From a phage, in the sequence record PZ168832.1: a stretch of DNA of 64,000 bases. One strand, written 5' to 3'. The position numbers and the translations under genes were made by a program. Positions 355-31,502 of the stretch are shown in pieces. Below the pieces are notes generated by a model. The model worked only from the letters and a program-made list of their open reading frames with translations. It was not told the DNA's origin and did not search any database. Position 1 is the stretch's first letter. Every line of letters begins with the position of its first letter.

Positions 355-419
355 TTTCGTTTCCTCTATGATTTCTGCTTCAATGATTAAAGTATACGCC
401 CATTGAAGCAGAAAGCAAA

Positions 420-1415
420 TTATTTATTAGCAATATAAGCAAATTTTTGATAGTTATTTGCTTTGATGAGTTTTTCAACTTCAACAAGGTCATGAGCTAC
501 GTCATCAAGCAAGATGTTGCGCCATGTAGCGAATCGGCCAACACTGAATACGTTCAAATCCATAGTCAGCTGGAGCAGTAAGGCGTGTCGCAAGTCTTTC
601 GGAATGTCGACAATCTTGCCATATTTCTGGTCGACCTTTTCAACTTCTTCAAGAGCAATGTCACTCCATGAGAGGCCAAAGGCTGTCAATACTTCGTCAA
701 CTTCTGCACGCAACTTAATGTCACGGTAACGAGTGATGCCGCCAGCGGCTTCAATTGCGGCTTCACTTACGCTAACCAAAGGAATTGTTTCAATGATCAA
801 TGTGTCGCCAGTGATTGATGCGCGGTAAGTTCTGACGGAGTAGTCAGGAAAGTAAATGGTTTGATACAGTTCACACTTGCGTTTAATCTTAAAGCGGTAA
901 ACACGAATGTTTGCCTTGTCGAATGAGAAATCAATCTTTTGATCAATCCCAGCAAGCTTCATTATGACTGGCAGCGGCGATGTGTTGATGATTGGCGTCT
1001 CGCTATAGCCGCAAAGAGTATCAACAGGAGTATTAAAGAATATGCGGTCACCCAGTTTGTCGACAAGCTGATCATAAAAGTCATCAGGCGCAATATAACG
1101 CGTTGCAGTTTTAAGCTTCATGATTGAACGGCTGCCAAACTGATTGGTGACCTTCATGGAATACATGTTGGCAAGGTTGATTGGGCAATGGTCGTGGTAG
1201 TAGTTGCCGCGAAAATACACAGCCTTGTCAACTGTCACTGCCTTAAAAGGGATTCCGGTAATACGGCTTACTTCTTCGCCGCGAAAGCGTAGCAGCGCCT
1301 TGTGCTGTGGCGCTCGCTCCCCTGCTTCGTACACAATAGAGTTCGGGAAGTGACACGCGGTAATAAGTCCTGCCAAACCGCCGCCGATAATCATTACAGG
1401 TTGTTTCATGTTCAT
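420..1415 (-). CDS. FAD/NAD(P)-binding oxidoreductase-like protein
   Basis: 331-aa ORF with N-terminal Rossmann fingerprint VMIIGGGLAGLITA (GxGxxG). AAGGA SD. The start could instead be Met3 (1409). Confidence 0.7.
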   Translation of the reverse strand: MNMKQPVMIIGGGLAGLITACHFPNSIVYEAGERAPQHKALLRFRGEEVSRITGIPFKAVTVDKAVYFRGNYYHDHCPINLANMYSMKVTNQFGSRSIMKLKTATRYIAPDDFYDQLVDKLGDRIFFNTPVDTLCGYSETPIINTSPLPVIMKLAGIDQKIDFSFDKANIRVYRFKIKRKCELYQTIYFPDYSVRTYRASITGDTLIIETIPLVSVSEAAIEAAGGITRYRDIKLRAEVDEVLTAFGLSWSDIALEEVEKVDQKYGKIVDIPKDLRHALLLQLTMDLNVFSVGRFATWRNILLDDVAHDLVEVEKLIKANNYQKFAYIANK

Positions 1416-1493
1416 TTGTCCTTTGTGGGTGATATGAGAAGTATAATAGCTAAATTATTTTACAGCAACAAGTCATTTCTATTTAGTACAGAC

Positions 1494-1521
1494 GAAAAAA
1501 GACCCACAACAAGTGTGGGTC
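1494..1521 (-). terminator. rho-independent terminator after the KAE-rich gene
   Basis: Minus-strand hairpin GACCCACA-CTTGT-TGTGGGTC followed by TTTTTT. Confidence 0.75.
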
Positions 1522-1549
1522 AATTACCGCTATATAACCGTCCTACAGG

Positions 1550-2389
1550 TTATTCCGCTTGATCACCGTCTTCGGCATTGTCGTTGGATTCAACATCGAC
1601 AAACTCGATGTGTCCCATCTCTTCCAGCTTGCTCAGGTAGGAGCGAACGGAAGCGCCAAACAGTTGATCTTTAACTTTCTCGCCCAGCTCATCGATAGAC
1701 TGTGCCACGCCAACTTCGCCTTCTTTGATCGCCGCCAGAACGCGTCCACGGGTGGAATGCTCTTGCGGCTGGCTCAGGCCATTGCCAGTGTAGATGAAGT
1801 GAGTGGCTTTTGCACGACGCTGACCGTTTGCCTTTTTAGCAGCCTTGCGCTCTGCGATAGCTTTGCGACGTTCTTCAGCTTCTTTCTTACGCTGTTCTTT
1901 CTGCTGTTCCGCAGCTTCTTTCGCCGCAATCTTAGCAGCTTCACGCTCTGCCTTGCGTTTCGCCTTGGCTTCTTCTTTGGCCTTCTCTTTTTCGGCCTTC
2001 GCTGCAGCACGGGCTTGATCACGCTCTGCTTTCTTAGCAGCAGCCTGCTCTGCTTTCAGGCGCTTGGCTTCTTCTTTAGCCTTTGCCTTTTCGATTTCTT
2101 TTGCTGCTTTAGCGGCTTCACGCTCTGCTTTCTTAGCAGCAGCCTTTTCTGCACGCTCTTTAGCTTTCTTAGCTGCTTCTTCAGCACGCTTCTGAGCCTT
2201 CTCATCAGCAGCCTGTTTGCGCTTCAGCGCGGCTTCTTCACGCTTGGCTTGTTTTTCCTGCTCACGCTTCTGGCGTTTTTCTTCGGCTTCTTTCTTTTTA
2301 GCCAGGCGTTTTTCTTCAGCCACGCGACGACGTTCTGCTGCGGCTGCTTGTTTTTCTTCTTTAGATAATACTTTGATTGCTTCGGCCAT
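1550..2389 (-). CDS. Lys/Ala/Glu-rich charged-helix protein with a globular C-terminal domain
   Basis: About 200 aa of K/A/E/R low complexity (AEEKRLAKKKEAEEKRQKREQEKQAKREEAALKRK...), then a non-repetitive C-terminus (...RVLAAIKEGEVGVAQSIDELGEKV...SYLSKLEEMGHIEF). AAGGA SD sits 8 nt before ATG 2389; the ORF track starts at GTG 2395. Confidence 0.65.
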   Translation of the reverse strand: MAEAIKVLSKEEKQAAAAERRRVAEEKRLAKKKEAEEKRQKREQEKQAKREEAALKRKQAADEKAQKRAEEAAKKAKERAEKAAAKKAEREAAKAAKEIEKAKAKEEAKRLKAEQAAAKKAERDQARAAAKAEKEKAKEEAKAKRKAEREAAKIAAKEAAEQQKEQRKKEAEERRKAIAERKAAKKANGQRRAKATHFIYTGNGLSQPQEHSTRGRVLAAIKEGEVGVAQSIDELGEKVKDQLFGASVRSYLSKLEEMGHIEFVDVESNDNAEDGDQAE

Positions 2390-2548
2390 ATTCACAGTCC
2401 TTAAATAAATTAGTTTATTTTATATTCCCCGTTTGGGATAACTTAATTATGCCTTCAGTCGCCGCCAGTAGCAACTAAAAACTATGGCGGCAATGCCACT
2501 TTAATTAAACTGATTTTCAGTTTTATTTTTCGTAAATTTACGTCAACA

Positions 2549-3733
2549 TTAACGCGCTTTCAAATCACGGTACACGGTCAGATTCTTCTTAGCACGGGTG
2601 ATAGCGGTGTACATCATCTTGGAGTACGGAACGCCGCGCAGGATTTCTTCCAGCACGCACACGTTGTCCCACTCGCTGCCTTGCGATTTGTGGACCGTGA
2701 TTACATAGCCATAGTCCATCCCGCCAACAGCGCGTTGAGCCTCTTTGCGCACTTCCTGATCAGTAGAGAAGGAAAGAGGATTAATCTTAACCTTTATATC
2801 TTTGCCATCGGTAAGCGAGCGCAAATTGACATACATGATTTCATTGGACTCGTCTTCGTCCCTTTCAAAGTCCGGCACTGGCTCATAGCTAATAACAATC
2901 CCTTGCTCGCCATTACAGAATCCTGGGCCGTGTTGGTTGAAGGTGCAAATAACCTTCTCGCCGATTCCTGGCATTGGCGTTATACGTCCGCTCACTTGCC
3001 GTAATAATGAATTCCATTTGTCTTTGGTGCTATTATAGGAGCAAATAATTTGATCATCTTCGCCCATGAATTTCTTCAATGCAGTAACGCGCGGCGATTC
3101 TGCCAACACTTTGACGTCATCATATTCACGCGGAGGAAGGCGGTTGCCTTGGCGCACGAAGAAGGAGGCGCGGATAATGTTGGACTCTTTCCCTTGCCGC
3201 ATGATTTCTGTTAACAGTACGTCAACGGCTTCTTCGGTAAAGTAGGCGGCGGCTTTTACCGGAGGGACTTGTCCAATGTCGCCTAATGCCAGGACAGGGA
3301 TGCGGTGATCAAGAAGGCGCTCTGTGTCCCACTCGCCAACCATCGACGCTTCATCGAGTACAACAAGGTGCGGCCTTTCATCCAGCTTTGACTTTCTCGA
3401 AAAGATTGGCTCATTGTCGTCATTTACGCCGCGCACGTTATAGATGAACTGGTGAAGGGTCTTAGCGCCACGACAGCCTTTTTGCTTTAATCGGCTTGCA
3501 GCCTTTCCGGTCGGCGCAATATAGATAGCGCCGTACTCACCGACACAGCGGCGCACAATCTCGCGAGCAATAGAGGTTTTACCAGTCCCTGCATAGCCAG
3601 CGATGAAAAACACGCGCTTCGTCGTTTTACCGTCCTGCAATCGCTTGTACCATGCAACGGCTTTCTCGATGGCGTCGATTTGTTGCGCGTTAAACTGAAT
3701 CACTGGCTCATCATTAAATTCTGGAATGTTCAT
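2549..3733 (-). CDS. Dda/RecD-like SF1 DNA helicase
   Basis: Walker A GYAGTGKTS, Walker B VVLDEASMV, C-terminal ITVHKSQGSEWDNV. GGAG SD. Confidence 0.85.
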   Translation of the reverse strand: MNIPEFNDEPVIQFNAQQIDAIEKAVAWYKRLQDGKTTKRVFFIAGYAGTGKTSIAREIVRRCVGEYGAIYIAPTGKAASRLKQKGCRGAKTLHQFIYNVRGVNDDNEPIFSRKSKLDERPHLVVLDEASMVGEWDTERLLDHRIPVLALGDIGQVPPVKAAAYFTEEAVDVLLTEIMRQGKESNIIRASFFVRQGNRLPPREYDDVKVLAESPRVTALKKFMGEDDQIICSYNSTKDKWNSLLRQVSGRITPMPGIGEKVICTFNQHGPGFCNGEQGIVISYEPVPDFERDEDESNEIMYVNLRSLTDGKDIKVKINPLSFSTDQEVRKEAQRAVGGMDYGYVITVHKSQGSEWDNVCVLEEILRGVPYSKMMYTAITRAKKNLTVYRDLKAR

Positions 3734-4059
3734 TATAACTCCACTACGCTTTCAAGGTCCAGATATACTGGAATAAAATGGCAATCTTCTTTTCGTTCAA
3801 ACATCTCACCATCAACATGGCTGAAGAAAACAGTTGTGTTTGGTATCTTCCATCCTTTCTCGTCGCGCACTAAGTACGCCATGGATTCAACAGGGATGTA
3901 CAGCGATACCGGATTCGCGGCAAAAATAAATTTGATTCTGTCTGGTTGACCCAGGAATCGCATGATTGTTAGGCTTGAATTCAATCTTGTATTAAGGAAG
4001 GACTCAACGATTCCGACGTGTGTTGCACGCTCGCGTTGCTTCGTCTCTTTTTCGTTCAT
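3733..4059 (-). CDS. hypothetical protein
   Basis: 108-aa ORF. Its stop overlaps the helicase start, suggesting coupled translation. Confidence 0.55.
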   Translation of the reverse strand: MNEKETKQRERATHVGIVESFLNTRLNSSLTIMRFLGQPDRIKFIFAANPVSLYIPVESMAYLVRDEKGWKIPNTTVFFSHVDGEMFERKEDCHFIPVYLDLESVVEL

Positions 4060-4219: not shown

Positions 4220-5302
4220 ATGGCTAGTTTAAGAGAAGAAGCAAAAATAATTGAAGAGTTTTTAACAGAACTCCAAAGAGGCATCCCAGAAGATGAGCGC
4301 GTCATGACGGTGTTTGCTCCTGAAGCAACGGTACAGACCGACGAGCGCGGCAAGAAGATCAACAGCAGCTTCTGGCCTAAGCCTTGGAAGTTGGGCAAGC
4401 CGCTCATGCAGCACCAAAACGGCTATGCGTGCATCAGTTCAATGCGTAAGTCTCCCAACCCAAAGACGGGTGAGATGCGATACTGGCGTACAGAGTCGGC
4501 CTTTGGTCACGGTATGGCGATGATGGTCGACGACATCGGCCACGGTAAAGGGTCCAAAGGCGATTTAGATTTGGAATTCTTTTTCGAGCGACTGAAGCCG
4601 ACTGTCATTGTCGAGACGTCACCGAACAACCACCAGCTTTGGTACTTCTTTAAAGAGCCGATTGACCATCTTATTCAGTTCAAAGCATTCCTTGGGTCTT
4701 TCGTAAACATGGTACTCAAGAAGGGCGGCGACAATACGATTAAAGACGTGACGCGCGTGGGCCGTGTTCCTGGGTGCATCAACAACAAGCGTGTGACTCA
4801 CGACGGCCCCTATAAATATGTCGATGAGAACGGCGACCCGTTCCGCTGCCGACTTGTCCATGCAGACTACTCCTTGCGCTACACCATCGAAGACATCTGT
4901 CAGGCATTTGGCTTTCACGTCGTTATGTCGCAAAAGCGTGAGATTCAAATTGACGTCGATGAATACAAGTACGATGCTGTTTGGTATAAAATAGCCCAGC
5001 AGATTCTAGCGCGCAACAAAATGGGTGAAGGGTCTGATGGCGACGTCATCGAGAACATGTCAGGCAAGTGCCGCATAATCTGTCCTTGGGGTGAAGAACA
5101 CACCAACGGCGACCCGTATGGCGCTTATTTTCGCGGCCCCATCCCTGGTGCTGAACATGAATTCGTTTTCGGTTGCGCTCACGACTGTCACCGGAAAGGG
5201 GAAGGCAAGAAAGGTTGGACCGCTTTTGTTGAAGCAGTAGTCATGCCTTATATTGAGAATCAACTTGATATGATAAATCGTCGCGCAGGTGGCATAAAAT
5301 AG
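4220..5302 (+). CDS. archaeo-eukaryotic-primase (AEP) type primase-polymerase
   Basis: Motifs MMVDDIGHG (DxD), SPNNHQLWYFF and GRVPGCINNK match the AEP/prim-pol pattern. C-terminal Cys/His cluster CRIICPWGEEH...GCAHDCH. Confidence 0.7.
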   Translation: MASLREEAKIIEEFLTELQRGIPEDERVMTVFAPEATVQTDERGKKINSSFWPKPWKLGKPLMQHQNGYACISSMRKSPNPKTGEMRYWRTESAFGHGMAMMVDDIGHGKGSKGDLDLEFFFERLKPTVIVETSPNNHQLWYFFKEPIDHLIQFKAFLGSFVNMVLKKGGDNTIKDVTRVGRVPGCINNKRVTHDGPYKYVDENGDPFRCRLVHADYSLRYTIEDICQAFGFHVVMSQKREIQIDVDEYKYDAVWYKIAQQILARNKMGEGSDGDVIENMSGKCRIICPWGEEHTNGDPYGAYFRGPIPGAEHEFVFGCAHDCHRKGEGKKGWTAFVEAVVMPYIENQLDMINRRAGGIK

Positions 5303-6083: not shown

Positions 6084-6188
6084 ATGAAAGCCGTAAAGAA
6101 ATACACATTAATCATTTCCCTTGTCATCATCCTGGGGCTATTATATGTATTGGATATGGCATATTATTTGGCAGGGGTGAGTGGATGA
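6084..6188 (+). CDS. hypothetical small membrane protein (34 aa)
   Basis: MKAVKKYTLIISLVIILGLLYVLDMAYYLAGVSG. ATGA overlap with the next gene; weak SD. Confidence 0.4.
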   Translation: MKAVKKYTLIISLVIILGLLYVLDMAYYLAGVSG

Positions 6189-6475
6189 ATATTGTAATTC
6201 TTTATGGTGAAAATATCAGCGATGACGACATCGAAGTTGCCGTTGATGTTTACGGTATCGATGAGGTGAAACGTGTTGAAGAAATTAGTGGCGCAAATCT
6301 CAATGAGATTGTCAAAGAAGCTGGCTGCCCTTCGGAAGAGATTCTGGTGGTTACTAACGATGACCTGTCTTCTATGGATCATTTGCGCCGCATCTTCACC
6401 GATTGCCAATACCTTCATGCTGTTCAATCAGTAAACAAATTGAGAAAGGCATACGCCAACCAATTTCCTTGCTGA
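6185..6475 (+). CDS. hypothetical protein
   Basis: 96-aa ORF with GGGGTGAG SD. Confidence 0.55.
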   Translation: MNIVILYGENISDDDIEVAVDVYGIDEVKRVEEISGANLNEIVKEAGCPSEEILVVTNDDLSSMDHLRRIFTDCQYLHAVQSVNKLRKAYANQFPC

Positions 6476-6611: not shown

Positions 6612-8282
6612 ATGTCAATTGAACATGACAATCTTCCAGAGGATACAGGTGATGAATTTGGTGCAATCTTTGACGAAATTCAAGACGCTGGTGTTTCAGA
6701 AGAAATGCAAGCAGCAGAGCAGCAAGGCACCAGAGCTAAAATAAGCCTTCAGCACAAGGCTGTTGAGAAAGATGCAGAGCGCATGGAATGCTACGGTGAA
6801 GAAGACTTGGTTGAAAGGGCACGTTTGCTCGCCTCACTTCAGGTAATCAAGTTCCCTCACTATAAACCGACGAAAGATGATTTTGTTCTTCAGGCGGACC
6901 GGACGAGTGACATGAACCGTTATGCGGTTTTCGACGCGTTGTTTGATAAGGGAAGCGGCGTTGTTCCATTCCCTCACAAAGATACTTTTCGTGGGCGCTT
7001 AGTCGACCATCGCGGCGAAACATTCACCGACCGGACGTTGGAAGTCACAGAGATAGTTGCCGCTGTCGACGCAGCAGGCCTGTCCAACCCAAACTCACGG
7101 CAGGTCGCTCAATCCTATAAGGAATGGGCCATGCGTTATCAGCGCGACGACCTGATGGACTTCTTCTACAAGAAGCTGCCTGAATGGGACGGTACTGCGC
7201 GCATTGAGAAATACCTTATCGAGCTATTCCGACCGTTCGATACAGAGTTAAACCGACAAATCGGTGTGTATTTTTGGCTATCGCTCTATAACCGCCTGAC
7301 CAACCCTGGCTGTCAAGCGCCAATATCCATTGCGCTCATCGGCGGCCAGAACGCAGGGAAGAGTTATTTTAGTAAGCTGCTTTGCGAAGCTATTATGAAC
7401 GACCGCCACGCAACACCGATTCCGTTGAACTTGGCCGCGCAAAACTTCAACCCGTTCTTGCGAGCTATTACGGGTCGCTCAATTATCGCGAACGTTGGCG
7501 AGATGACAGGCTTTAAAAAGGCCGACATCGAAAACATGAAAGCATTCCTGACTAAGACGGAAGATGACCTGGACTTCAAATTTGAAGACACGCAGGTTAA
7601 ACCACGCCAGTGGATTGCGATCATGGACGGCAACGAATACGCAGGCATGCAGCGTGACGACACGGGCAACCGTCGTGTTTACCCTATCTTTGTTGGCCAA
7701 CTTGCTGACAAGGACGGGCAACCGAACTGGTCTAAAGACTTCCAAGCTGACCTTTCCACTTTGAAAGAAGATGTTTGGCAGCTTATGGCTGAGTGCGCTG
7801 CGTGGATGGAGAAGCACGGCGAAGCAGGTTACAACGCCTTTGTTGGTGAAACGTCTCGTATGCTTACTGAGTTCAGCAAGAATGAAATGGAACGCGCTCG
7901 CGGCGTTATCCGTGATGAGATGGTCGACAACGACCTTGTTGAAGTCGTCATTACTGCGCCTTATGACCGACATCACAGCGGACGCTGGCACATCACCAGT
8001 GGTGCAATCGCTATGGGATTCAGAGCTAAGTGCGGCAAGTCGCCTTTCTCACGTACCCTTGCGCCGCACATGTCGAAACTTGGATTTGAGCCTGCAACCT
8101 ATCGCAACCAGCGTGGTTACTTTACGCCGCTGATTAAGAATGAAGCAGGGGAATACATTTCTGACTTGATGACTATCTTGGCGTATCTTATCCGCGACGA
8201 GTCTGACCCTGAAGATATTGAATTCTTGAAGAAGGTTATTGAACGCAAACGTTCTTTAGGAAGAGATAAGGATGAATTCTGA
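6612..8282 (+). CDS. VirE/D5-type primase-associated P-loop NTPase (putative replicative helicase)
   Basis: 556 aa. Walker A LIGGQNAGKSYFSKLL. Sits downstream of the AEP primase. AGGAGG SD. Confidence 0.75.
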   Translation: MSIEHDNLPEDTGDEFGAIFDEIQDAGVSEEMQAAEQQGTRAKISLQHKAVEKDAERMECYGEEDLVERARLLASLQVIKFPHYKPTKDDFVLQADRTSDMNRYAVFDALFDKGSGVVPFPHKDTFRGRLVDHRGETFTDRTLEVTEIVAAVDAAGLSNPNSRQVAQSYKEWAMRYQRDDLMDFFYKKLPEWDGTARIEKYLIELFRPFDTELNRQIGVYFWLSLYNRLTNPGCQAPISIALIGGQNAGKSYFSKLLCEAIMNDRHATPIPLNLAAQNFNPFLRAITGRSIIANVGEMTGFKKADIENMKAFLTKTEDDLDFKFEDTQVKPRQWIAIMDGNEYAGMQRDDTGNRRVYPIFVGQLADKDGQPNWSKDFQADLSTLKEDVWQLMAECAAWMEKHGEAGYNAFVGETSRMLTEFSKNEMERARGVIRDEMVDNDLVEVVITAPYDRHHSGRWHITSGAIAMGFRAKCGKSPFSRTLAPHMSKLGFEPATYRNQRGYFTPLIKNEAGEYISDLMTILAYLIRDESDPEDIEFLKKVIERKRSLGRDKDEF

Positions 8283-15194: not shown

Positions 15195-15643
15195 TGGGTA
15201 AAAAGCTTATCGCCGCTGGTTGGGCCATCCCGAAGTGGGCTCATCGTGCGCACTACTTTGATGAAGGAGAAGTGCAAAGCCTTTGTGGTCGCGCAACTTA
15301 TTTCGGTGATGAGCGCGTCAGCGGCGATTACATCGACTCGCTTTTAGGCAAAGGTGATTGCAAGAAATGTCAGGATATATTAAGAGATATTCTTACGCAA
15401 AGAGGATTGCTTGAGCTTGATGAATCGGAGGAAGTAATTGAACTTAAGCTTGAAGCGAATTACCTTATTTATACGTTCAAGAACTATTACGCAACTAATA
15501 TGCGCTCAAAAATGAGCGAGGAAGTAATAGAAAAGGTGTTCACCTACAATCCGCTAAGGATGAATAAAACTAAATTGAAGAAGTTTAATATAATGTTAAG
15601 GAAAGAATTTAAAAGGCTTGGAGTGAAGAATTTTATATTTTAA
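15194..15643 (+). CDS. hypothetical protein
   Basis: AAGGAGGGG SD. Last gene of the rightward early block. Confidence 0.55.
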   Translation: MGKKLIAAGWAIPKWAHRAHYFDEGEVQSLCGRATYFGDERVSGDYIDSLLGKGDCKKCQDILRDILTQRGLLELDESEEVIELKLEANYLIYTFKNYYATNMRSKMSEEVIEKVFTYNPLRMNKTKLKKFNIMLRKEFKRLGVKNFIF

Positions 15644-15661
15644 TAGTGATTAATGTTAAGA

Positions 15662-15681
15662 GGGCCGATTGGCCCTTTTTG
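15662..15681 (+). terminator. rho-independent terminator ending the early block
   Basis: GGGCC-GATT-GGCCC followed by TTTTT. Confidence 0.75.
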
Positions 15682-15797
15682 TTTGCCTGTGGAATGTGAG
15701 GCTTTTGTGGTTATTTACGATTCAAGGCTGTAATTTAAGAGAGCGAAAATATTATAATAATTTATCAAGATTATTGCATATTGTGGCAATCAACGTT

Positions 15798-16500
15798 TAT
15801 ACGTATTTATGACAGTTTAATCCACTAAATAATACGGATAGAACAGTGAGGAAAATACAGCGGTGTATTTTAGTGTAAATATTGAATCAAAAATAAATAA
15901 TTATGGTGCTATTATATACGCAGATTGTTTGTAATTTATAGGATATTTTATCGTGGAGTATTGGCTAACGGTGCGTTAGCCGTGGGTCTTGGTGCTTGTG
16001 GTGTTGATGCTCAGAATTTTAATAATGTTTTAGTTTTAGTAATCGTAGTCAATGATGATACGTATAAGAAAATGAGAGTCACCCCTTCACAGGATATTGT
16101 ACCGTGGCCCTGTGGTGCGCCGCGCCTGGGATTGCTGGTATACACTGGTGCTATTTTGCCGCGAAGGCAGTCATTCATACGTATCATGACGTATCATTGG
16201 GCTATTGATTTATAAGGAAAAATACGCTGATACGGATGATACGGGTGCAAACATAATATATATAGAATTCCAGAAAATTAATTAACTCCATTTTGAATTA
16301 ATTTAAATTAATTTTTTTCTACATCCTCATACTTATACTAAACTTATATTTATACGTATCATCCGTAAGATATAAGTAAAAACAAAGACTTGCGGCAATA
16401 CGGATGATACGTCATGATACGCTTCAACCAGCCATCTGCGGCTAAGTCATTGATTTGCATAACAAGCGGCGAAAGGGATGGATTTCTTTTATACGTATCA
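15798..16500. repeat. iteron cluster A: CGTATCATCCGTA / ACGGATGATACG units in both orientations around an AT-rich core (about 16250-16350)
   Basis: Units read at 15798, 15832, 16052, 16178-16197, 16229-16243, 16352-16367, 16398-16422 and 16491. The core contains GAATTC...AAATTAATT...TTTTTTT. Confidence 0.8.
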
Positions 16501-16586
16501 AACAGTACACCACGCACCACGGTCCGCAATCCACGCAGCATTATGATTTGTGTACATTTATAGCCATAATGAACATCAATCTGCAC

Positions 16587-16615
16587 TTGAATATAATGTC
16601 CATCCATTGTATAAT
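16587..16615 (+). promoter_or_regulatory. sigma70-like promoter upstream of terS
   Basis: TTGAAT (16587-16592), 17 nt spacer, TATAAT (16610-16615). Confidence 0.6.
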
Positions 16616-16650
16616 TCACACTATTAATTTGCACTATGGGATTTTGCACT

Positions 16651-17124
16651 ATGAGTCAAGACTATGTAGCGATGCCTGAAGACTTTGAAGACCCGCGATT
16701 TGCAGAGCACAATCAGGCTTTATTCGATGAGTTCATTGACCTTGTTATTCAGGGCCATGACATGCGCGCAGCTTTTGCACTAGTATTTGGAATGGAAGTT
16801 GCAACGGATAACTACACTGGACAGCGAATCCTTTGCGCGCAACGCAACCCATACTACAAAATGCGCTTCAAAAAGCGTATGGAAGAGATGCCACTCAAGG
16901 ATTTGTGGAGCGTAAAAGGTGCAATTCACAATTTGGTTAAGCTTGTGCGTGATCCAGAAGTCGCGGCGTCAGCCAAGCTTAATGCTATTCGCGAACTGAA
17001 TATCATCTACGGCATCACGATGATTGATGAAAACGGCAATAGTAAAATGGGCCGTTCCATGGACGATTTCTACAAGGATTTTGGAGAGGCAGCCAAAGAA
17101 GGCGAGCAATTCTCCCGCCACTAG
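16651..17124 (+). CDS. terS: terminase small subunit-like protein
   Basis: 157 aa. The segment PEVAASAKLNAIRELNIIYGI resembles the conserved helix of small terminases. N-terminal helical region. The ORF-track ATG 16636 lies inside the motif doublet and ATG 16651 is preferred. Assignment is by resemblance only. Confidence 0.5.
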   Translation: MSQDYVAMPEDFEDPRFAEHNQALFDEFIDLVIQGHDMRAAFALVFGMEVATDNYTGQRILCAQRNPYYKMRFKKRMEEMPLKDLWSVKGAIHNLVKLVRDPEVAASAKLNAIRELNIIYGITMIDENGNSKMGRSMDDFYKDFGEAAKEGEQFSRH

Positions 17125-17143
17125 CCAATTTGCACTATAAAAC

Positions 17144-17177
17144 GGCCCTAGAACACATCTTCTCCACTTCTAGGGCC
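17144..17177 (-). terminator. 10-bp perfect hairpin; likely terminator of the leftward island operon (and possibly of terS)
   Basis: GGCCCTAGAA-14 nt-TTCTAGGGCC. On the minus strand it is followed by GTTTTATAG. There is no U-run on the plus side. Confidence 0.55.
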
Positions 17178-17238
17178 GTCGGTAATACGACGGGGAAGGT
17201 TGCAACCGTAAACGCGTTAGAAAGTGTATTATTATAAG

Positions 17239-17502
17239 TCATCTTTTAGTCACCTTACGTAACAATTTACGACCTTCAGCCGTCCAATCGAACGACTCCA
17301 CCAGCAGATTCGCACTATAACCTAAGATGATGCGCCCTTTCTCGTTATCGACCCGCCAACAAGTCTCGAATAGCATTCGATTTGCACTATTAACTATCGC
17401 CGCAACGCGCGTAGGGTAAACGCAATTTGCACTATGGTCATAAAGGGATAAGGTGCGACCACTTCCGATGGACAACGTAGCGATGAGAATGAGCGTATTC
17501 AT
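17239..17502 (-). CDS. hypothetical protein with a signal-peptide-like N-terminus
   Basis: 87 aa with GGTGG SD. MNTLILIATLSIGSG.... Contains three in-frame copies of the reverse-complemented 12-mer (HSAN, NSAN, YSAN). Confidence 0.45.
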   Translation of the reverse strand: MNTLILIATLSIGSGRTLSLYDHSANCVYPTRVAAIVNSANRMLFETCWRVDNEKGRIILGYSANLLVESFDWTAEGRKLLRKVTKR

Positions 17503-17552
17503 AAGCCACCAATTTGCACTATGAAAAGCGACCCCGAAGGGCCGCCATTCGA

Positions 17553-18179
17553 TTAGATAATCTGGAAGGTGTAGGACTTGTTGCCGAACTCGAAGTTCAA
17601 GCGCCCAGCTTCCTTAAGCTTCATGCGGAAGCGAATATGTTTGCTATCCGGTAAGCCCAGCGCGGCGAACGCTACGCGGACCGATTTGAACTCTCCTACA
17701 CCCTCGACCATAACGCCGTTACGGGTAAGACGCTTTTGCGCCACTTCCTTATTATCCCAACTTTTTGCAATGCCTTCGCTATTCGAACGGCGATGGGAAG
17801 GAGTTCCGTTTTGCACTACGCAATTTGCACTATCGTTTAAACCGCTCTTAACGAAGGCTTCATACTCTTCGTCGGTCATCGCGTCGAGTTCTTCCTGCGT
17901 CGGCTCGGCCTTTTTAACGACCGCACGCGCCTTATGCGTTTTTACATCGCTGGACACTTCCTCGCGCGGCTTCGCGTCGGGGATGGGCGATTCGTTGGAC
18001 GGCTCATCGAGCGCGTTTAAGGACTCGATTAACGCGATTACGCGAGTCTCGGCGGTCCGGCGGTCCGAAAACTTCTTAATCGGTTTTGAGCCGGAATTTG
18101 CATTATAGAATGCAACGAGGTCGGCGGTCTTAGTTGCGATAACGTCGCCGCTAGTCGAGAAGCGATTTAAGCTAACCAT
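17553..18179 (-). CDS. hypothetical protein (possible DNA-binding protein of the island)
   Basis: 208 aa with AGGAG SD. Has a protein-like composition, an acidic/Pro-rich linker and a basic C-terminal domain (KRLTRNGV...SVRVAFAALGLPDSKHIRFRMKLK). Confidence 0.6.
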   Translation of the reverse strand: MVSLNRFSTSGDVIATKTADLVAFYNANSGSKPIKKFSDRRTAETRVIALIESLNALDEPSNESPIPDAKPREEVSSDVKTHKARAVVKKAEPTQEELDAMTDEEYEAFVKSGLNDSANCVVQNGTPSHRRSNSEGIAKSWDNKEVAQKRLTRNGVMVEGVGEFKSVRVAFAALGLPDSKHIRFRMKLKEAGRLNFEFGNKSYTFQII

Positions 18180-18259
18180 AATAAACTCCTATTTGTTAGG
18201 GCGCTAGGCGCGAAAGAATTTTATTAAAGCGCCGCGCACGACGCTCTAAAAATCCTCTC

Positions 18260-18544
18260 TTACGCTTCGACGAGGGAGAAGGTTTCAAATTCTTCTTCTC
18301 CCATAACGAGTAAAATATTCCCGATTTCGACCGCTTCGAAGAAGTATCCGTTAACGTTTACTTCGAATGATTCGCGGTCCGATTCCGGTAACGCCGCGTA
18401 AAGTTTAAAAGCCTCGGCGACCGTTACCCCACCCGCTTCAATAGTTTGATCTACGTTCGCGGCGTAGACTTCGGATAAATTTTGTTTTACGCCGTAGTTC
18501 TCGACGATAGCGTTACGGATAGAAGAAACGTTAAGAATAGCCAT
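18260..18544 (-). CDS. acidic small protein, island paralogue A1
   Basis: 94 aa with AGGAG SD. Paralogous to 19176-19466 (EVYAANVDQTIE / SVYLSNVDATIE; VNVNGYFFEAVEIG / VTINGFVYTITEIG). Confidence 0.6.
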   Translation of the reverse strand: MAILNVSSIRNAIVENYGVKQNLSEVYAANVDQTIEAGGVTVAEAFKLYAALPESDRESFEVNVNGYFFEAVEIGNILLVMGEEEFETFSLVEA

Positions 18545-18559
18545 TTTAAACTCCTAGTT

Positions 18560-18596
18560 GGGATAGGCGTTAACGACCTATTCGTTAACTCATCCC
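18560..18596 (-). other. conserved structured 5' leader (copy for A1)
   Basis: On the transcript: outer stem GGGAT/ATCCC and inner stem GTTAACGA/TCGTTAAC with loop ATAGG, just upstream of ACTAGGAG. Confidence 0.5.
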
Positions 18597-18612
18597 GTCC
18601 CGATATGAGTAC

Positions 18613-18640
18613 ATTATAATATAGTGTAGAAAAAAGTAAA
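18613..18640 (-). promoter_or_regulatory. island promoter P-L1
   Basis: TTTACT, 16 nt spacer containing TTTCTACACT, then TATAAT (minus strand). Confidence 0.6.
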
Positions 18641-18684
18641 GCACTTTTTCGATAAAAATGCGATAAATTATTTTATCTTTTTTC

Positions 18685-18712
18685 TTTACTTCTTCGTACA
18701 CTCGCGTATACT
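18685..18712 (+). promoter_or_regulatory. island promoter P-L2
   Basis: TTTACT, 16 nt spacer containing TTCGTACACT, then TATACT. Followed by GTTTATATCGAGACGGG, which is shared with the other copies. Confidence 0.6.
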
Positions 18713-18767
18713 TGTTTATATCGAGACGGGCGATGGCCTTTCTTCTACTAGCATCGGGAGCTTTATT

Positions 18768-19070
18768 ATGACTACTTTGATCTCTTCCATCCTTACTTAC
18801 GACGAAGACCGCTTAACCGTTCGCTCTCTTATCGCCGCCGTTAACGCGGAACTAGAATCTAGCGCCATTAAGGTCCGCGCGGTCGCCTTCATCGGCCTTT
18901 CCTTCGACGATATGAAGTACGCCGAACGTAGCGCCATCCGCTTCACGAAGACCGACGACGAAGCCGTTACCCTTATCGAGACGGTTACGCCGCGCGACGA
19001 AGCGTTAATTATCATCGAGTATATCGATATAGAAGGTGATAAAGCTTATAAATATTTTATCGCAAAATAA
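18768..19070 (+). CDS. acidic small protein, island gene B (possible distant paralogue of A1/A2)
   Basis: 100 aa with GGGAG SD. N-terminus MTTLISSI resembles MITLSAI and MAILNVSSI. Confidence 0.6.
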   Translation: MTTLISSILTYDEDRLTVRSLIAAVNAELESSAIKVRAVAFIGLSFDDMKYAERSAIRFTKTDDEAVTLIETVTPRDEALIIIEYIDIEGDKAYKYFIAK

Positions 19071-19081
19071 CGAAAAATTGC

Positions 19082-19110
19082 TTTACTTATTCGTACACTA
19101 AGACTATAAT
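19082..19110 (+). promoter_or_regulatory. island promoter P-L3
   Basis: TTTACT, 17 nt spacer containing TTCGTACACT, then TATAAT. Confidence 0.6.
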
Positions 19111-19121
19111 GTTTATATCGA

Positions 19122-19154
19122 GAGGGATGAGGAAGCGAATAGGTCGCTACCCTC
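19122..19154 (+). other. conserved structured 5' leader (copy for A2)
   Basis: Outer stem GAGGG/CCCTC and inner stem (A)GCGA/TCGC(T) with the same loop ATAGG, upstream of ACTAGGAG. Confidence 0.5.
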
Positions 19155-19175
19155 CCGACTAACTAGGAGAATATT

Positions 19176-19466
19176 ATGATTACTTTATCCGCTATCCGCG
19201 CCGCTCGCGTCGAAACTTCCGAAAACTCTAATGTATTTGGCGAAACCTTAGAGAGCGTTTATCTCTCTAACGTAGACGCGACTATCGAGTCTATTTATGA
19301 ACCGATCAACTTCCTCGACCTTTACAAGTATCGCGACGAGGACGTAGCATCCTACCGCGTAACGATTAACGGCTTCGTCTATACGATTACCGAAATCGGC
19401 GGCGAATATCTCGCGATCCCGCAACTCGGCGGAGAAGTGACTTATTTTAAAATCGTAAGCCTTTAA
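19176..19466 (+). CDS. acidic small protein, island paralogue A2
   Basis: 96 aa with AGGAG SD. Paralogue of 18260-18544. Confidence 0.6.
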   Translation: MITLSAIRAARVETSENSNVFGETLESVYLSNVDATIESIYEPINFLDLYKYRDEDVASYRVTINGFVYTITEIGGEYLAIPQLGGEVTYFKIVSL

Positions 19467-19477
19467 GGAGAAGAAAA

Positions 19478-19687
19478 ATGACTAATATGAATAACTCTCT
19501 TAACGCGCGCGCCCATCGTACCGCCGTCATCGATATGTTCCGCGAACTTAAGGAATTATGCGATAATATGAACGCGATGTTATCCATCGGCGGCTGGGGA
19601 TACGAAGAAGAGGTTAAATACGCGGTTATGCGTCGTAAGCGCGATAACGTCCTGGGACAAATTAAACGCGCCGGATTATTCCTTTAA
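19478..19687 (+). CDS. hypothetical small protein, island gene C
   Basis: 69 aa with AAGGAG SD. Confidence 0.55.
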   Translation: MTNMNNSLNARAHRTAVIDMFRELKELCDNMNAMLSIGGWGYEEEVKYAVMRRKRDNVLGQIKRAGLFL

Positions 19688-19713
19688 TTATAATTACCCA
19701 CCGTTACTAATAG

Positions 19714-19738
19714 GCCGCGCTTAGTCGCGGCTTTTCTT
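19714..19738 (+). terminator. rho-independent terminator of the rightward island operon
   Basis: GCCGCG-CTTAGT-CGCGGC followed by TTTTCTT. Confidence 0.7.
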
Positions 19739-19857
19739 CGTCCCTATTTCGATGCGCTTCTCCGCGAAAACTCCTTTATCCTTCCCTTCGTCGTCGCATA
19801 ATCTTCTTCGAGATGCTCCTTAGTTCGCATAACAGGTATTACGTTAAATGGAGAACA

Positions 19858-19931
19858 TCGCGTAAGTCCTTGTTTTATATAGACACCTATATCGGACCGT
19901 TAGGGCGGGTCGCGTAAGTCGTTGTTTTATA
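19858..19931 (+). repeat. two 22-bp direct repeats TCGCGTAAGTC(C/G)TTGTTTTATA
   Basis: Copies at 19858-19879 and 19910-19931, 52 bp apart, in non-coding DNA. Confidence 0.8.
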
Positions 19932-20056
19932 AAGGCGCAAAACTTTCCCTTCGTTCCGAACTAAAACGAGGAATATGCCGACCCTTCGTCCGAAAATAGT
20001 ACGCATGCGAAATTACATGCATCTAGAATAATCCCCACCGATATTATCCTACACGC

Positions 20057-20119
20057 AATCATTCGCTTTCGAATCATTATGCTTCATATTGTTATGCGTC
20101 AAATCATTCGCTTTCGAAT
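20057..20119 (+). repeat. two 18-bp direct repeats AATCATTCGCTTTCGAAT
   Basis: Copies at 20057-20074 and 20102-20119. Each contains the dyad ATTCG-CTTT-CGAAT. Confidence 0.8.
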
Positions 20120-20332
20120 TGTAACGCTGGAAACTGTAACGGCTATTGATTATTGCGTTCGTGTGGTTTTTATGGCATGGGTCTTTTGGTGCGTTTTGGT
20201 ACTTGATGGAATTTGCGGTACACTAATCAAAATACGACACATTTGGTCCACTAACTTTTCAAAGAAAAAGTCCCAGACAGTACCGTACTATTTTGTACCC
20301 ACAGTAAATTTGCAGTACACTCCTGCGCGGCA

Positions 20333-21890: not shown

Positions 21891-24248
21891 TTATTTCGCT
21901 GCTTTCAGCGCGGCTATCTCTGCCTTGAGTTCATCTATCTGATCCATCAATGCAAGAATAGCCTCGTGGTGCAGTGCTGCTGCTACACCTGGTGTGTTGA
22001 CAGATTTTATGTTATCCAACGTCGAACCGTCGCGCAGAGTAACAGGCGATGACTGTGTTTCAGATACTGCTTCAGGAAAGTCTTTCTCTACATCCTGGGC
22101 GATGAAGCCAAAACCGACGGAGCCATTAGTTTCCAGAGTCCATGCCACGCCTCTGATGTTGCGCATCTTGACAAGTGGATCAGTGATCCGCTCAATGTTA
22201 CTTTTAATACGTTCATCAGATATACTCCGCCACTCCTGACACCTTGCTATTCCATCGGAGCCAAAAAGATAAGAGGCCGCGCCGCCTGTCCCGCTGTAAA
22301 CGTTCAATTGCGCGCGGTCCAGCGTGGTCGTGCTACTCCTTATGCCTCCGAGAATCCAGCTTCCACTGTACCAGTCACCGCTGATTGAGTTTACAAAATT
22401 TCCTTCTGGAACGTTGGCATAGTTTTGAATCCTTATGGCGTTGTTTTCTGCAGCAGCAACGCCTACTGAATTAACTGGGGATGCAACAAGGTCTTTAGAC
22501 CGGATATATGCATCAACAACTATTGTCCCATCAGGGCGCAGAGTTCCAATCTGGGATGTGGAATTCGGCAACACCAATTTGCCATCTTGGTTAAATGCCC
22601 ACTCTTGCACCCCATTAGATATCACAGCACCTTGTTCAGACGTCAATCCATCAATTTTGCCGTATGCCTGCAAGAATGCTTGATACGCGATGTTCGTGCC
22701 AATCTTATATTCAGATTTTACACTACCGCCTCTGACAAGCATTCCGGCTGCAGGTTTTACTGCGTCGCCGTTAATCACACTCCAAGAAGTATTCGCGGCA
22801 ACAAATCCACCCGATGCACGAATCACCCAAACGCCAACAAAGTTGCGACCCATGATTTCGTCAGTTGCCGCTCCATAAATCGGGCTTGATCTGGATGCAT
22901 CAATATTTATTGTATTGAGACGCCCCTCTACTGCCCCGCTTCCAACAGGTATGGTGTCGCCAGCGCCTTGGGGGTACAAATCGTTGTTTGTGTAAAAAGC
23001 ACCTCGGACGGCTGTGCCAAAGATTTGCGCATAAGTGCCTGCCGATACACCAGCGGCTGAGCCTGTGATGTTTGGTGCAGCAGATTCAAATATTTGACCG
23101 TTCGCAGTGGAGTTGCCGCCATCACCGCGCCCGTAAAGCGCCCGTACAGAGCCTGTCTGAACACCGTTAAGGTCTGGGACACGGAATGTCGTTGTGCCGT
23201 TACCTGAAGAATATTTTGCACGTTTGAACTTATCCGCAAGCCAGTCGGCATCTGCGATGGGCGAAAGCATTTGCGCATACGCCCAAAGTTCAGGCCAGTC
23301 AGCACGGTTTAGCAATTGCCCGTCTGCAACGACTTCGTATGGCTGAATATATGATCTACTATTGCGAAGATGGAAATCGCCAACACCATAGTTCATGACG
23401 CCGTTCATACTTGGACCAACGGTGCCTGTGTTTACTAAGTTTTCAACCCAACGCTTAGTCGCGGCATCATAATCATTTACAGGGTCGCCAGCGAGCGGCG
23501 TTGATCCTTGTGGACGGATGTTTAGCCACGCCTGAGCATTATCTGCAGAGCCTGTGCCGCCCATTGAAGTTGGAACGATGCTCTGATCAGCAACAGGGCC
23601 GAATCCAAAAGCAGACTTCATCCCTTGGATGGTAGTTTGCCCTGTGCCGCCGTTGGCGACTGGGATGACAGATTTACTGTTGTATAATTGCGCCCATTGA
23701 CTCCAAACCCCATTTACCGCGTTGTAAGTCCTTTGGTATGTAACATTGTTGTAATATGTTGAGTATCTTTGGACGCAACTTTCTATTGATGGTCCAGTTT
23801 TTAGGACTTCAAGGACTCCTGCTTGTGAAACTGGGTAATTAAGAACAGTCTGAGCATCTGCATTGAAGTCTTGGAAATAATTTCCAAACCAAGAGCCTGT
23901 CAGAAAGTTGAGATTTATCCCAGAAGGAAGTTTGCCATAATTTCTTACAACCCCTGTTAAGGTCGCAGCAGTGTTACGAATAGAAAGCATGTCACCAGCA
24001 GACCATGCACGCGCTGCCGTACCTTCTTGTGCGCGCTGCACGGTCAGGACGTCTCCAACCACGGCTGTCACTGTGACAATTTCGAATTGGCGGCCTGTTG
24101 CAGCGTCGACGATTGTCGCCACTACACGCTCGTTCGCGCCCAAGGTCGGAAATCCCGACCCTGAGCGAATTGTGATTGTGGTGTCTGAAGTCGTCGTTGG
24201 TTGAGCCAGCGCGACCTCAAAGTTGTTTTTGAATATTAGCCTTGGCAT
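21891..24248 (-). CDS. tail fibre/tailspike with a C-terminal intramolecular chaperone (peptidase S74-like) domain
   Basis: 785 aa. The C-terminus SDERIKSNIERITDPLVKMRNIRGVAWTLETNGSVGFGFIAQDVEKDFPEAV, followed by a coiled-coil tail, matches the S74 auto-cleaving chaperone pattern seen in endosialidase and T5 L-shaped-fibre proteins. Confidence 0.85.
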   Translation of the reverse strand: MPRLIFKNNFEVALAQPTTTSDTTITIRSGSGFPTLGANERVVATIVDAATGRQFEIVTVTAVVGDVLTVQRAQEGTAARAWSAGDMLSIRNTAATLTGVVRNYGKLPSGINLNFLTGSWFGNYFQDFNADAQTVLNYPVSQAGVLEVLKTGPSIESCVQRYSTYYNNVTYQRTYNAVNGVWSQWAQLYNSKSVIPVANGGTGQTTIQGMKSAFGFGPVADQSIVPTSMGGTGSADNAQAWLNIRPQGSTPLAGDPVNDYDAATKRWVENLVNTGTVGPSMNGVMNYGVGDFHLRNSRSYIQPYEVVADGQLLNRADWPELWAYAQMLSPIADADWLADKFKRAKYSSGNGTTTFRVPDLNGVQTGSVRALYGRGDGGNSTANGQIFESAAPNITGSAAGVSAGTYAQIFGTAVRGAFYTNNDLYPQGAGDTIPVGSGAVEGRLNTINIDASRSSPIYGAATDEIMGRNFVGVWVIRASGGFVAANTSWSVINGDAVKPAAGMLVRGGSVKSEYKIGTNIAYQAFLQAYGKIDGLTSEQGAVISNGVQEWAFNQDGKLVLPNSTSQIGTLRPDGTIVVDAYIRSKDLVASPVNSVGVAAAENNAIRIQNYANVPEGNFVNSISGDWYSGSWILGGIRSSTTTLDRAQLNVYSGTGGAASYLFGSDGIARCQEWRSISDERIKSNIERITDPLVKMRNIRGVAWTLETNGSVGFGFIAQDVEKDFPEAVSETQSSPVTLRDGSTLDNIKSVNTPGVAAALHHEAILALMDQIDELKAEIAALKAAK

Positions 24249-30578: not shown

Positions 30579-31430
30579 ATGGCTTTTAAAGCTTCGAAAA
30601 AACGTGAACGCCGCTCACCCGATAGAATCGGACGCGGCAGTCCGATAATCCCATCAAACGCTATTGCGATGGCCTACCGTCGTGAGATGAAAGGTCTTTG
30701 CTATGCGATGATTGATGACTATCAGGCAGGCATTTCAGAATGGCTTGACAAGAAGCAGGTGCAGAAGTTTTTTGCGCAAGACTCTGCTGATTCGACATTC
30801 CAGACCCTTATGAAACGGCTGCAACTGAAATGGGCAAAGGCGTTTGCACGTGTTGGGTCGAAGATTGCCGCTGATTTTATCAAATCGGTCGAAAAGGGTG
30901 CCACTTCTGCTACATTCGCAAGCCTTAAGTCCGCAGGCATAGAAGCGCCAAAGGCCACATATAACAAATTCGTTGAGAACACTCTTAGAACAAGCGAGAA
31001 GTTTAACACGACTCTAGTGACTAAGGTCGGCGAGGATATTCACAACAGGGTGTACGAAGCGGTGATGCTTTCGCTGACTTCGCCAGACCCAGCACAGCAA
31101 GGCGCATCCGGCATTCAGGCGGCATTAAGAAATGTCAAACACTTCTCTGCAAAACGCGTAGACCTTATCGCCAAAGACCAAACGAGCAAACTTTATTGCG
31201 TATTAAGTGATGAAAGGATGCGACAGAATGGCGTGGAGGAATTTGAGTGGGCGCATTCAGGAGCAGGCAAAGAGCCGCGAATATCACATGAGCACGTCGA
31301 CGGCATGAGATTCAAGCTTGATGACAAACGCTTATGGGAAGTAGGTGGAGAACTTAAGTTCAAAAAGGGTGACATCGGTCCTCCTGGATGGGCAATACAC
31401 TGCAAGTGCAGAAAAATACCAATTATCTGA
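30579..31430 (+). CDS. head morphogenesis protein (Mu F / SPP1 gp7 family)
   Basis: Internal ATG (MAFKASKKRE...). The C-terminal HEHVDGMRF...GPPGWAIHCKCRKIP matches the Mu-F signature. Confidence 0.8.
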   Translation: MAFKASKKRERRSPDRIGRGSPIIPSNAIAMAYRREMKGLCYAMIDDYQAGISEWLDKKQVQKFFAQDSADSTFQTLMKRLQLKWAKAFARVGSKIAADFIKSVEKGATSATFASLKSAGIEAPKATYNKFVENTLRTSEKFNTTLVTKVGEDIHNRVYEAVMLSLTSPDPAQQGASGIQAALRNVKHFSAKRVDLIAKDQTSKLYCVLSDERMRQNGVEEFEWAHSGAGKEPRISHEHVDGMRFKLDDKRLWEVGGELKFKKGDIGPPGWAIHCKCRKIPII

Positions 31431-31502
31431 ATTAAGATAGTTGTAAATAAGCGCAATTTAAACTGTGCAATTATTAATTTGATATGAACTAAAGAGGAAG
31501 TT

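Follow-up and report, generated by a model that had tools for sequence, protein, structure and literature searches.

A repeat module with an AT-rich core lies upstream of terS

We analysed the gap of about 1 kb that precedes the small terminase gene (terS) in a 64,000-nucleotide stretch of phage DNA (record PZ168832.1; hereafter the window), and in particular the repeat module within this gap, which we term module A. The region 15600–16700 is 97.9% identical to Escherichia phage HermannAdler_Bas98 and is matched by 29 records of Wifcevirus, a genus of Escherichia coli and Shigella myophages with genomes of 66–72 kb. According to the BASEL paper, Wifcevirus is distantly related to the Pbunavirus (PB1-like) phages of Pseudomonas. 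The gap extends from 15644 to 16650, which agrees with the size given in the preliminary description of the window. Its left half is hypervariable among related genomes, and small open reading frames (ORFs) are possible there. The locus is made up as follows (a slash within a sequence marks the position of a DNA end):

15662–15681, plus strand: hairpin and T-run (GGGCCGATTGGCCC TTTTT) that closes the early gene block and forms the left limit of the gap; a terminator is annotated at the same place in phage WFH
16055–16062, minus strand: outlying repeat unit ATGATACG, an exact 8-mer match
16119–16162, minus strand: two GCCGC pentamers (16119, 16158) left of the core, the left half of a polar set
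16177–16197, plus strand: left outer array ATACGTATCATGACGTATCAT, two CGTATCA units with a 10-bp period, found by 8-mer and inverted-repeat searches
16228–16243, minus strand: left inner array TGATACGGATGATACG (GATACGGATGATACG at 16229–16243), two units with a 9-bp period
16244–16351, no strand: AT-rich core with A/T tracts in phase and a GC content of 19%; of all 100-bp stretches in the window, only one is less stable
16280–16297, plus strand: conserved box AATTAACTCC/ATTTTGAA, with the virion left end (left boundary of the direct terminal repeat) between 16289 and 16290
16352–16367, plus strand: right inner array ATACGTATCATCCGTA, forming a 14-bp inverted repeat with 16399–16412
16392–16470, plus strand: three GCGGC pentamers (16392, 16438, 16466) on the right-hand side of the core, which complete the polar set
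16397–16421, minus strand: right outer array AATACGGATGATACGTCATGATACG, three units, mirror image of 16177–16197
16489–16501, plus strand: distal unit TTATACGTATCAA, invariant within the genus
16570–16615, plus strand: two overlapping sigma70-like terS promoters, directed away from module A
16651–17124, plus strand: terS, small terminase (PDB 7UXE, E = 7e-34; 41% identity to JG024 ORF80)

The basic unit of the arrays is the heptamer CGTATCA, which occurs as two to three tandem copies with 9- or 10-bp spacing and in both orientations. The four arrays quoted in the preliminary description were all found, with coordinates off by at most 1 bp, and the AT-rich core that it placed between them was borne out by the GC content of 16244–16351. 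Its half-sites fared unevenly: those at 16052–16065 and 16491–16501 are true matches to the unit, whereas those at 15798 and 15832 are weak, since each carries one mismatch and one-mismatch matches occur about three times per kb throughout the window.

In order to locate the unit elsewhere, we searched both strands of the window for the 8-mer CGTATCAT and found 14 copies, compared with 1.99 ± 1.49 in shuffled sequences (maximum 7; none of 100 shuffles reached 14). Seven of these copies fall within 16055–16421, six within 31685–31939 and one elsewhere. A 17-mer search allowing up to three mismatches gave nine matches against 0.14 expected, all within the same two regions, and in the whole genome of phage Mansfield the repeat unit again clusters only at these two modules. 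The unit is thus confined to two modules; random scatter, which the preliminary description had named as contrary to its proposal, is not what is seen.

The arrays of module A are arranged symmetrically. The outer arms (16180–16197 and 16404–16421) form a perfect 18-nt inverted repeat and the inner arms (16231–16243 and 16355–16367) a perfect 13-nt inverted repeat, which together place the dyad centre of the module at 16299–16300.5. In addition, the two arrays of each arm are mutually inverted, as in the exact 14-nt repeat of 16354–16367 with 16399–16412, so that a hairpin of 14–16 bp is possible in each arm if the DNA is single-stranded (z −3.2 to −5.3).

Iteron-plasmid and lambda-type origins carry direct iterons of 17–22 bp, spaced by about 22 bp, beside an AT-rich region, together with DnaA boxes. 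The units of module A do not follow this pattern, being 7–9 bp long, spaced by 9–10 bp and present in both orientations. By inspection, the closest DnaA-like 9-mer, TTATCCGTA, matches at seven of nine positions. The integration host factor consensus is absent from both modules, and an Rfam scan of the whole window gave no match at the gathering threshold. Sites for host factors (Fur, DnaA and MetJ-like, considered by inspection only) were dropped as candidates because the motif varies with phage genus.

A second copy of the module precedes the capsid operon

The second cluster of repeat units, module B, is a paralogue of module A with the following features:

31676–31947, no strand: module B, upstream of the protease/scaffold and capsid operon
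31685 and 31694 (plus), 31734 and 31743 (minus), 31850, 31859 and 31868 (plus), 31901 (minus), 31932 and 31941 (plus): arrays of module B
31765–31846: core of module B, 9.8% GC, the most AT-rich core of the window
31659 and 31754: GCCGC pentamers; 31888 and 31961: GCGGC pentamers
32005–32033, plus strand: sigma70-like promoter, located downstream of module B, that serves the operon for the protease/scaffold and the major capsid protein

Module B and this promoter (about 330 bp in the region 31676–32060) are essentially identical in eight Wifcevirus genomes, and the flanking genes are less conserved. The two cores stand out from the rest of the window: they contain its lowest-GC 80-bp stretches (8.8% in B and 15% in A) and its least stable 100-bp stretches, with −100.8 kcal/mol in B and −101.5 kcal/mol in A against a window mean of −138.3 kcal/mol (standard deviation 8.3), a departure of about 4.5 standard deviations. 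Just upstream of the small ORF that precedes module B, at 31300–31480, the window differs from the seven other aligned Wifcevirus genomes, which suggests that a gene has been replaced next to the module.

The left end of the virion DNA maps to the core of module A

Several Wifcevirus records bear on the position of the genome ends. The Mansfield record is annotated as having been opened at the edge of a 3,673-bp direct terminal repeat predicted with PhageTerm from a TruSeq library. Its first base aligns to position 16290 of the window, and its last bases run into the left half of module A. For phages WFH and WFC, sequenced in a second laboratory, terminal repeats of about 3.7 kb were reported; the repeat is present at both ends of these records, which begin at the same homologous base. 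The end of the WFH record, …GGGCATGGGTCTTT, coincides with the end of the Mansfield repeat and corresponds to window position 20186. In the SP13 and Ro157lw records terS lies at 360–361, consistent with the same start; in the window the cut lies 361 bp upstream of terS. Projected onto the window by homology, these boundaries give:

16290–20186, plus strand: predicted direct terminal repeat of 3,897 bp, both boundaries placed by homology to the Mansfield repeat (1–3673) and the WFH record ends
20055–20186, plus strand: tandem units of about 15 bp (AATCATTCGCTTTCG and variants; AATCATT…GC), ending about 35 bp before the right boundary of the repeat
20186/20187: right boundary of the repeat, …GGCATGGGTCTTT/TGGTGCG

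The left end, AACTCC/ATTTTG, falls within the box AATTAACTCCATTTTGAA, about 10 bp leftwards of the dyad centre. A metagenomic relative, with only 75% identity in the helicase, has exactly the same box, which within Wifcevirus is kept in module A and absent from module B. Taken together, the records indicate that the AT-rich core of module A contains the physical left end of the virion DNA. Module A is therefore more than a candidate origin of replication, as which it had first been described, and may instead be a site for the terminase.

The terminal repeat is constant in length (3,673 and 3,701 bp) while the lengths of the unique genome differ, from which it follows that the ends are set by sequence and not by head filling. 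A headful origin of the repeat was rejected on these grounds; no circularly permuted headful product is evident in Wifcevirus, where the repeat boundaries are exact and conserved. We also rejected the possibility that fragile DNA had produced an artefactual end: no end lies in the core of module B, which is richer still in AT, and several records have the repeat at both of their ends. The tandem 15-bp array is a candidate right-end signal for the terminase, and is an equally plausible target of its small subunit TerS.

Conservation differs between the two sides of the left end. To its right, the DNA is nearly invariant in seven Wifcevirus genomes. To its left (window 15690–16230, the right-hand end of the unique sequence), three unalignable versions occur within the genus. 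Common to all three are GCCGC pentamers, additional CGTATCA units and, at a distance of about 45 bp from the cut, the inner array ACGGATGATACGGAT. As regards base composition, G and T predominate in the top strand left of the module, and C and A predominate right of it in relatives; in the window, a short C+A-rich stretch (16505–16540) follows the distal unit.

Twin modules recur at syntenic sites in four genera

Wifcevirus, Kylevirus, Pbunavirus and Bcepfunavirus all have twin modules, placed at the same two sites, which are syntenic between the genera. The repeat motif is genus-specific and changes jointly in both copies; in a test of 8-mer sharing, the twins of these four genera scored 64–86 against a background of at most 20. 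In Pseudomonas phage JG024 (Pbunavirus) the modules lie upstream of terS and of the protease/scaffold gene, as in the window, and the motifs are GGTAATTT units and a 21-bp inverted repeat around an AT-rich centre. Pantoea phage Kyle (Kylevirus) has a pair built of GGTTATT units, and Burkholderia phage Maja (Bcepfunavirus) one built of TAGTTAAC units. For Xanthomonas phage XcP1 and Aeromonas phage Gekk3-15, each with a single module, the same test gave no twin in the parts that were sampled. A degenerate-pattern scan of viral contigs with TerS returned Wifcevirus and Pbunavirus only. For comparison, identity between genera is 41% for TerS and 45% for the helicase described below.

The coincidence of module and DNA end is likewise shared. 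Both ends of the Kyle record carry a terminal repeat of 3,603 bp, and the start of the record lies within the AT-rich core of the module next to terS; the core of the Kyle module B is nearly identical to that of module A across the cut position. About 11 units of the same 15-bp kind run up to the right end of the Kyle repeat (6990–7169 of sequence L029). In the published long-read analysis of JG024, the start falls at 59,376 ± 5 in 36 of the 161 reads that exceed 30 kb, an XbaI fragment fits this start, coverage dips just upstream and a headful packaging (pac) site was proposed there. This position falls between the inverted arms of the terS-proximal module, about 20 bp from its dyad centre. 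DNA ends thus lie at the module centre in three genera, two with exact terminal repeats and one reported to be headful; permutation has been reported for JG024.

The distribution of Chi-like octamers further supports the presence of a double-strand end at module A only. The octamer CCACCANC represents Chi (GNTGGTGG) on the bottom strand, an orientation in which it would be encountered by RecBCD that had entered at a break in the core and travelled rightwards. The octamer occurs 160–360 bp to the right of module A in Kyle (two copies), JG024 (two), Maja (one) and Gekk3-15 (two), with no copy in the wrong orientation and none next to a module B. The closest exact complement of Chi in the window is about 1 kb inside the end. 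The positions are:

17298: window
3820–3870: L029 (Kyle)
7715–7760: L016
about 22350–22370, reverse strand: L031

The position of the module relative to other genes differs between phages. In JG024, Maja, Gekk3-15, XcP1 and two integrated relatives it comes immediately after the helicase gene. Where terS and the helicase gene are apart, the outcomes conflict: the module accompanies terS in Kyle and in Wifcevirus, but the helicase gene in XcP1, in which it is 3 kb and seven genes away from terS and no module is present at the capsid operon.

These comparisons bear on two further explanations. The first is that the module is an upstream activator or repressor region for the late terS and capsid promoters; a related proposal, an enhancer or activator of the late operon, was the alternative offered in the preliminary description. 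The sigma70-like promoters indeed lie outside the modules, 60–170 bp downstream of both and directed away from them, and both operons are late. We nevertheless consider such a role very improbable, as the terL and portal operons have no module and that of XcP1 precedes seven small genes instead of terS, and since regulation leaves the size of the module, its dyad symmetry and the genome end in its core unexplained. The second explanation is a mobile element resembling a miniature inverted-repeat transposable element. Two copies per genome and a perfect 18-bp inverted repeat with arms 206 bp apart would suit such an element, which would be bounded by 18-bp terminal inverted repeats; it is barely credible given the fixed syntenic positions of both copies in four genera, the joint change of their genus-specific motifs and the lack of target-site duplications or further copies, and was rejected on synteny.

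Origin-like features and a SaPI Rep-like helicase

The cores of both modules are flanked by short polar motifs, GCCGC on the left and GCGGC on the right. In eight modules of four genera, 39 pentamers are arranged in this outward sense and two inward (binomial p = 8e-10). The polarity is 6:0 in Gekk3-15 and the same in XcP1 and in an integrated relative from Caballeronia. The pentamer is about fourfold enriched over background, and its polarity is no by-product of composition, since it opposes the local GC skew.

Such an arrangement is known from the origins of the Staphylococcus pathogenicity islands (SaPIs), which contain 6–12 penta- or hexanucleotide iterons just downstream of rep, read by the winged helix of Rep. 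The iterons are divided equally between the two flanks of a central AT-rich region, with two or more per flank, and point in opposite directions (PMC9371898). Module A has two pentamers on one side and three on the other, and module B two on each. Two replication genes of the window are relevant in this context:

4220–5302, plus strand: RepB-type (RSF1010-like) primase (PF16793, E = 5.5e-36)
6612–8282, plus strand: VapE-like helicase resembling the self-loading Rep of SaPIs, candidate origin binder (PF05272; PDB 7PDS by sequence and fold)

The helicase matches SaPI Rep1 (7PDS) by sequence with E = 4e-11. An AlphaFold2 model built from an alignment of 59 sequences (predicted local distance difference test score, pLDDT, 90; a single-sequence model was unusable, with pLDDT 34) has 7PDS as its best PDB match over about 480 columns (E = 3e-16). 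Residues 436–505 of the model are predicted to form a winged helix of H-E-H-H-E-E topology. The window encodes, as SaPIs do, a Rep-like helicase with a predicted C-terminal winged helix. It does not reproduce the location directly after rep, as the end of the helicase gene (8282) and the start of the module (near 16050) are far apart. The primase and helicase functions are split over genes with small ORFs between them (4220–5302, a 96-residue ORF at 6185–6475, and 6612–8282); the 96-residue ORF is annotated as RepB-like in the Mansfield record.

Integrase-flanked elements in Caballeronia and Cupriavidus (L036 9730–10370 and L037 9671–10333) carry a helicase of this family. In both, the helicase gene is followed by a gap of about 650 bp and then by a gene of 163–173 codons; the Caballeronia gap has a unit of its own, GTAACTC/GAGTTAC (here the slash separates the two orientations), and the GCCGC-to-GCGGC polarity. 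These elements have the appearance of relatives, temperate or integrated, of a phage group considered virulent.

The polar pentamers, the unstable cores and the likeness to the SaPI origin and its helicase could be accounted for by an origin alone, the coincidence with the DNA end being indirect: the terminase would read another signal and cut easily opened DNA nearby. This is decidedly unlikely. The cut is base-exact in three Wifcevirus records and falls within a conserved 18-bp box, the end recurs in the Kyle core and between the JG024 arms, and the core of module B, although more AT-rich, is not an end.

A proposed model linking origin and genome end

It is our tentative view, to which we assign a probability of roughly 0.45, that the module is a SaPI-type origin element present in two copies, of which the terS-proximal copy also sets the packaging start and with it the left genome end. 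The origin proposed in the preliminary description is strengthened by the second copy, by the two least stable cores, by the SaPI-like polar pentamers and by the SaPI Rep-like helicase; what that description missed was the left genome end in the core.

According to our model, the helicase would use its C-terminal winged helix to bind the repeats that flank the core on either side, recognizing the GCGGC pentamers, the CGTATCA arrays or both. It would then melt the core and, with the RepB-type primase, start DNA synthesis at both modules. A double-strand end would arise at AACTCC/ATTTTG in module A only, made either by the terminase cutting the opened or bent core or by cleavage of a branch left by rightward synthesis. 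DNA would be packaged rightwards through terS, and a cut at 20186, beside the separate 15-bp array, would form the right end, giving the direct terminal repeat of 3.9 kb. In this scheme we infer the pairing of protein and repeat, the melting and priming of the core, the route by which the end is made, the direction of packaging and any role of module B.

In one variant of the model, the left end would be defined by the firing of the origin and not by a sequence-specific terminase cut. Rightward leading-strand synthesis would begin at 16290 in the melted core of module A and copy the terminal repeat by strand displacement; a branch-cutting nuclease, possibly TerL, would free a flush end at the 5′ end of the nascent strand, and the terminase would read only the 15-bp array at the right boundary. 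This variant is unlikely, but if true it would account for the position of the end in an origin core, for the duplication of the repeat and for the firing of module B without formation of an end.

The strongest competing explanation is a pure packaging site without origin function. Here the CGTATCA arrays would bind a TerS decamer on both sides of the cut, the AT-rich core would act as a bendable spacer presenting AACTCC/ATTTTG to the TerL nuclease, and module B would be an uncut second platform for TerS, used for example in synapsis or in control of the capsid operon. In P1 pac and in SPP1 pacL–pacC–pacR, repeated short motifs flank the first terminase cut and the site lies beside terS. The present module has a similar layout: a DNA end lies within it (in the Mansfield, WFH, WFC and Kyle records and at the JG024 long-read starts), so that ends are at or in the core in three genera, and it adjoins terS both in the window and in Kyle. 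The terS product is a homologue of the decameric TerS of Pseudomonas phage E217, which can be set beside the recurrence of the units every 9–10 bp, and both the Chi-like sites and, in Wifcevirus, the cut box go with module A and not with module B.

Nevertheless, a pure packaging site appears somewhat unlikely to us. An uncut second site that is kept in four genera and is invariant in eight Wifcevirus genomes requires an ad hoc role, and the near identity of the two Kyle cores extends across the cut position. The adjacency to terS fails in XcP1, where the module stays with the helicase gene. Neither the instability of the core nor a polar pentamer shared across genera is needed for a pac site, and the different right-end array, common to the two genera with direct terminal repeats, is an equally good target for TerS. 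An origin, by comparison, explains the twin, the unstable core, the pentamers and the helicase.

Several points tell against the proposed origin with a coupled end. The pentamer is a short motif of high frequency (about 1.2 per 500 bp on each strand), and the A and B copies within one genome are not independent. The cumulative GC skew (extremes at 3880 and 53701) contains no origin signal separable from gene orientation; because its extremes follow gene orientation, it is uninformative on origins. Some 8 kb separate the module from the helicase gene in the window, and it adjoins terS on the upstream side, the usual location of pac; repeats flanking the cut are a property of the P1 and SPP1 pac sites as well. 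The tandem 9–10-bp spacing would suit DNA wrapped on a decameric TerS. Moreover, an origin gives no obvious reason for an end in its core, so that a coupling step must be assumed, and origin function is a candidate assignment from sequence in all of these phages.

Comparison with known replication and packaging systems

Like the SaPI origin, the module has short repeats, at least two per side of a central AT-rich region and in opposite directions. The helicase has the same fold (7PDS) with a predicted C-terminal winged helix, the primase is a separate or fused partner, and in most relatives the element directly follows the helicase gene. Unlike a SaPI, the host of the module is a 68-kb virulent myophage and not a satellite, with two copies per genome and a second, genus-specific repeat family in inverted pairs capable of forming hairpins. 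The copy in the window is 8 kb from the helicase gene, its core is the physical genome end, and binding and melting are postulated by our model.

The likeness to the pac sites of P1 and SPP1 lies in the repeats that flank an end, the adjacent terS, a TerL annotated as SPP1-like and the putative pac start of the headful relative JG024 in the equivalent module. The differences are the exact direct terminal repeat of 3.7–3.9 kb in place of a permuted headful series, the second, uncut copy, and a core far more AT-rich than known pac centres.

In satellite phage P4, the ori and crr elements are both bound by the alpha primase-helicase, one serving as the start site and the other being enhancer-like, and cos is separate. 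The present system resembles P4 in its two separated cis elements with the same short repeat and in its putative binder, a primase-helicase with a C-terminal DNA-binding domain; it differs in that neither P4 element is a genome end. SPP1 likewise has two distant origin-type elements in one phage, oriL and oriR, with initiator boxes and an AT-rich region. Its initiator, G38P, is of a different type, and a link with the pac cut is not known there.

A parallel with T7 concerns the terminal repeat. In T7, synthesis primed near the left boundary duplicates the 160-bp repeat at the concatemer junction; here too a direct terminal repeat needs duplication by synthesis from the left boundary, at which an inverted repeat is present. 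T7 is without repeat arrays or a SaPI-type helicase, and its primary origin lies elsewhere. Finally, at the oriV of plasmid RSF1010 the sites ssiA and ssiB are used by the RepB′ primase. The window has in common with RSF1010 a RepB-family primase, hairpin-forming sites on opposite strands and a large inverted repeat beside an AT-rich region, whereas there is no sequence similarity to the ssi sites and the DNA end is 64 nt from the nearest hairpin base, a geometry unlike that of RSF1010.

Relation to previous work and significance

The terminal repeat of Wifcevirus is already on record (GenBank and two papers), and the pac position of JG024 has already been proposed. In full-text literature searches we found no description of the repeat module, its twin, the polar pentamers or the link to a SaPI-type helicase. 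No origin or pac site has been mapped in Wifcevirus or in related phages, notably the Pbunavirus phages employed in Pseudomonas therapy, and published reports on the genome ends of Pbunavirus contradict one another. A conserved and recognizable module that marks the packaging start offers a concrete target, in exact-repeat genera and the headful genus alike, and could aid genome engineering and rebooting, through the placement of ends, as well as the orientation of genomes in databases. Should origin and end formation prove to be mechanically coupled, the regeneration of long direct terminal repeats would have a new explanation.

Neighbouring genes

Searches of Pfam, PHROGs and NCBIfam with the neighbours of terS and the last early genes assigned no functions. 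Just after terS, on the minus strand at 17553–18179, lies a gene for a 208-residue protein of unassigned function (phrog_4730) in which no domain was found; reverse-strand genes of similar size occupy the same position in Kyle, JG024 and XcP1.

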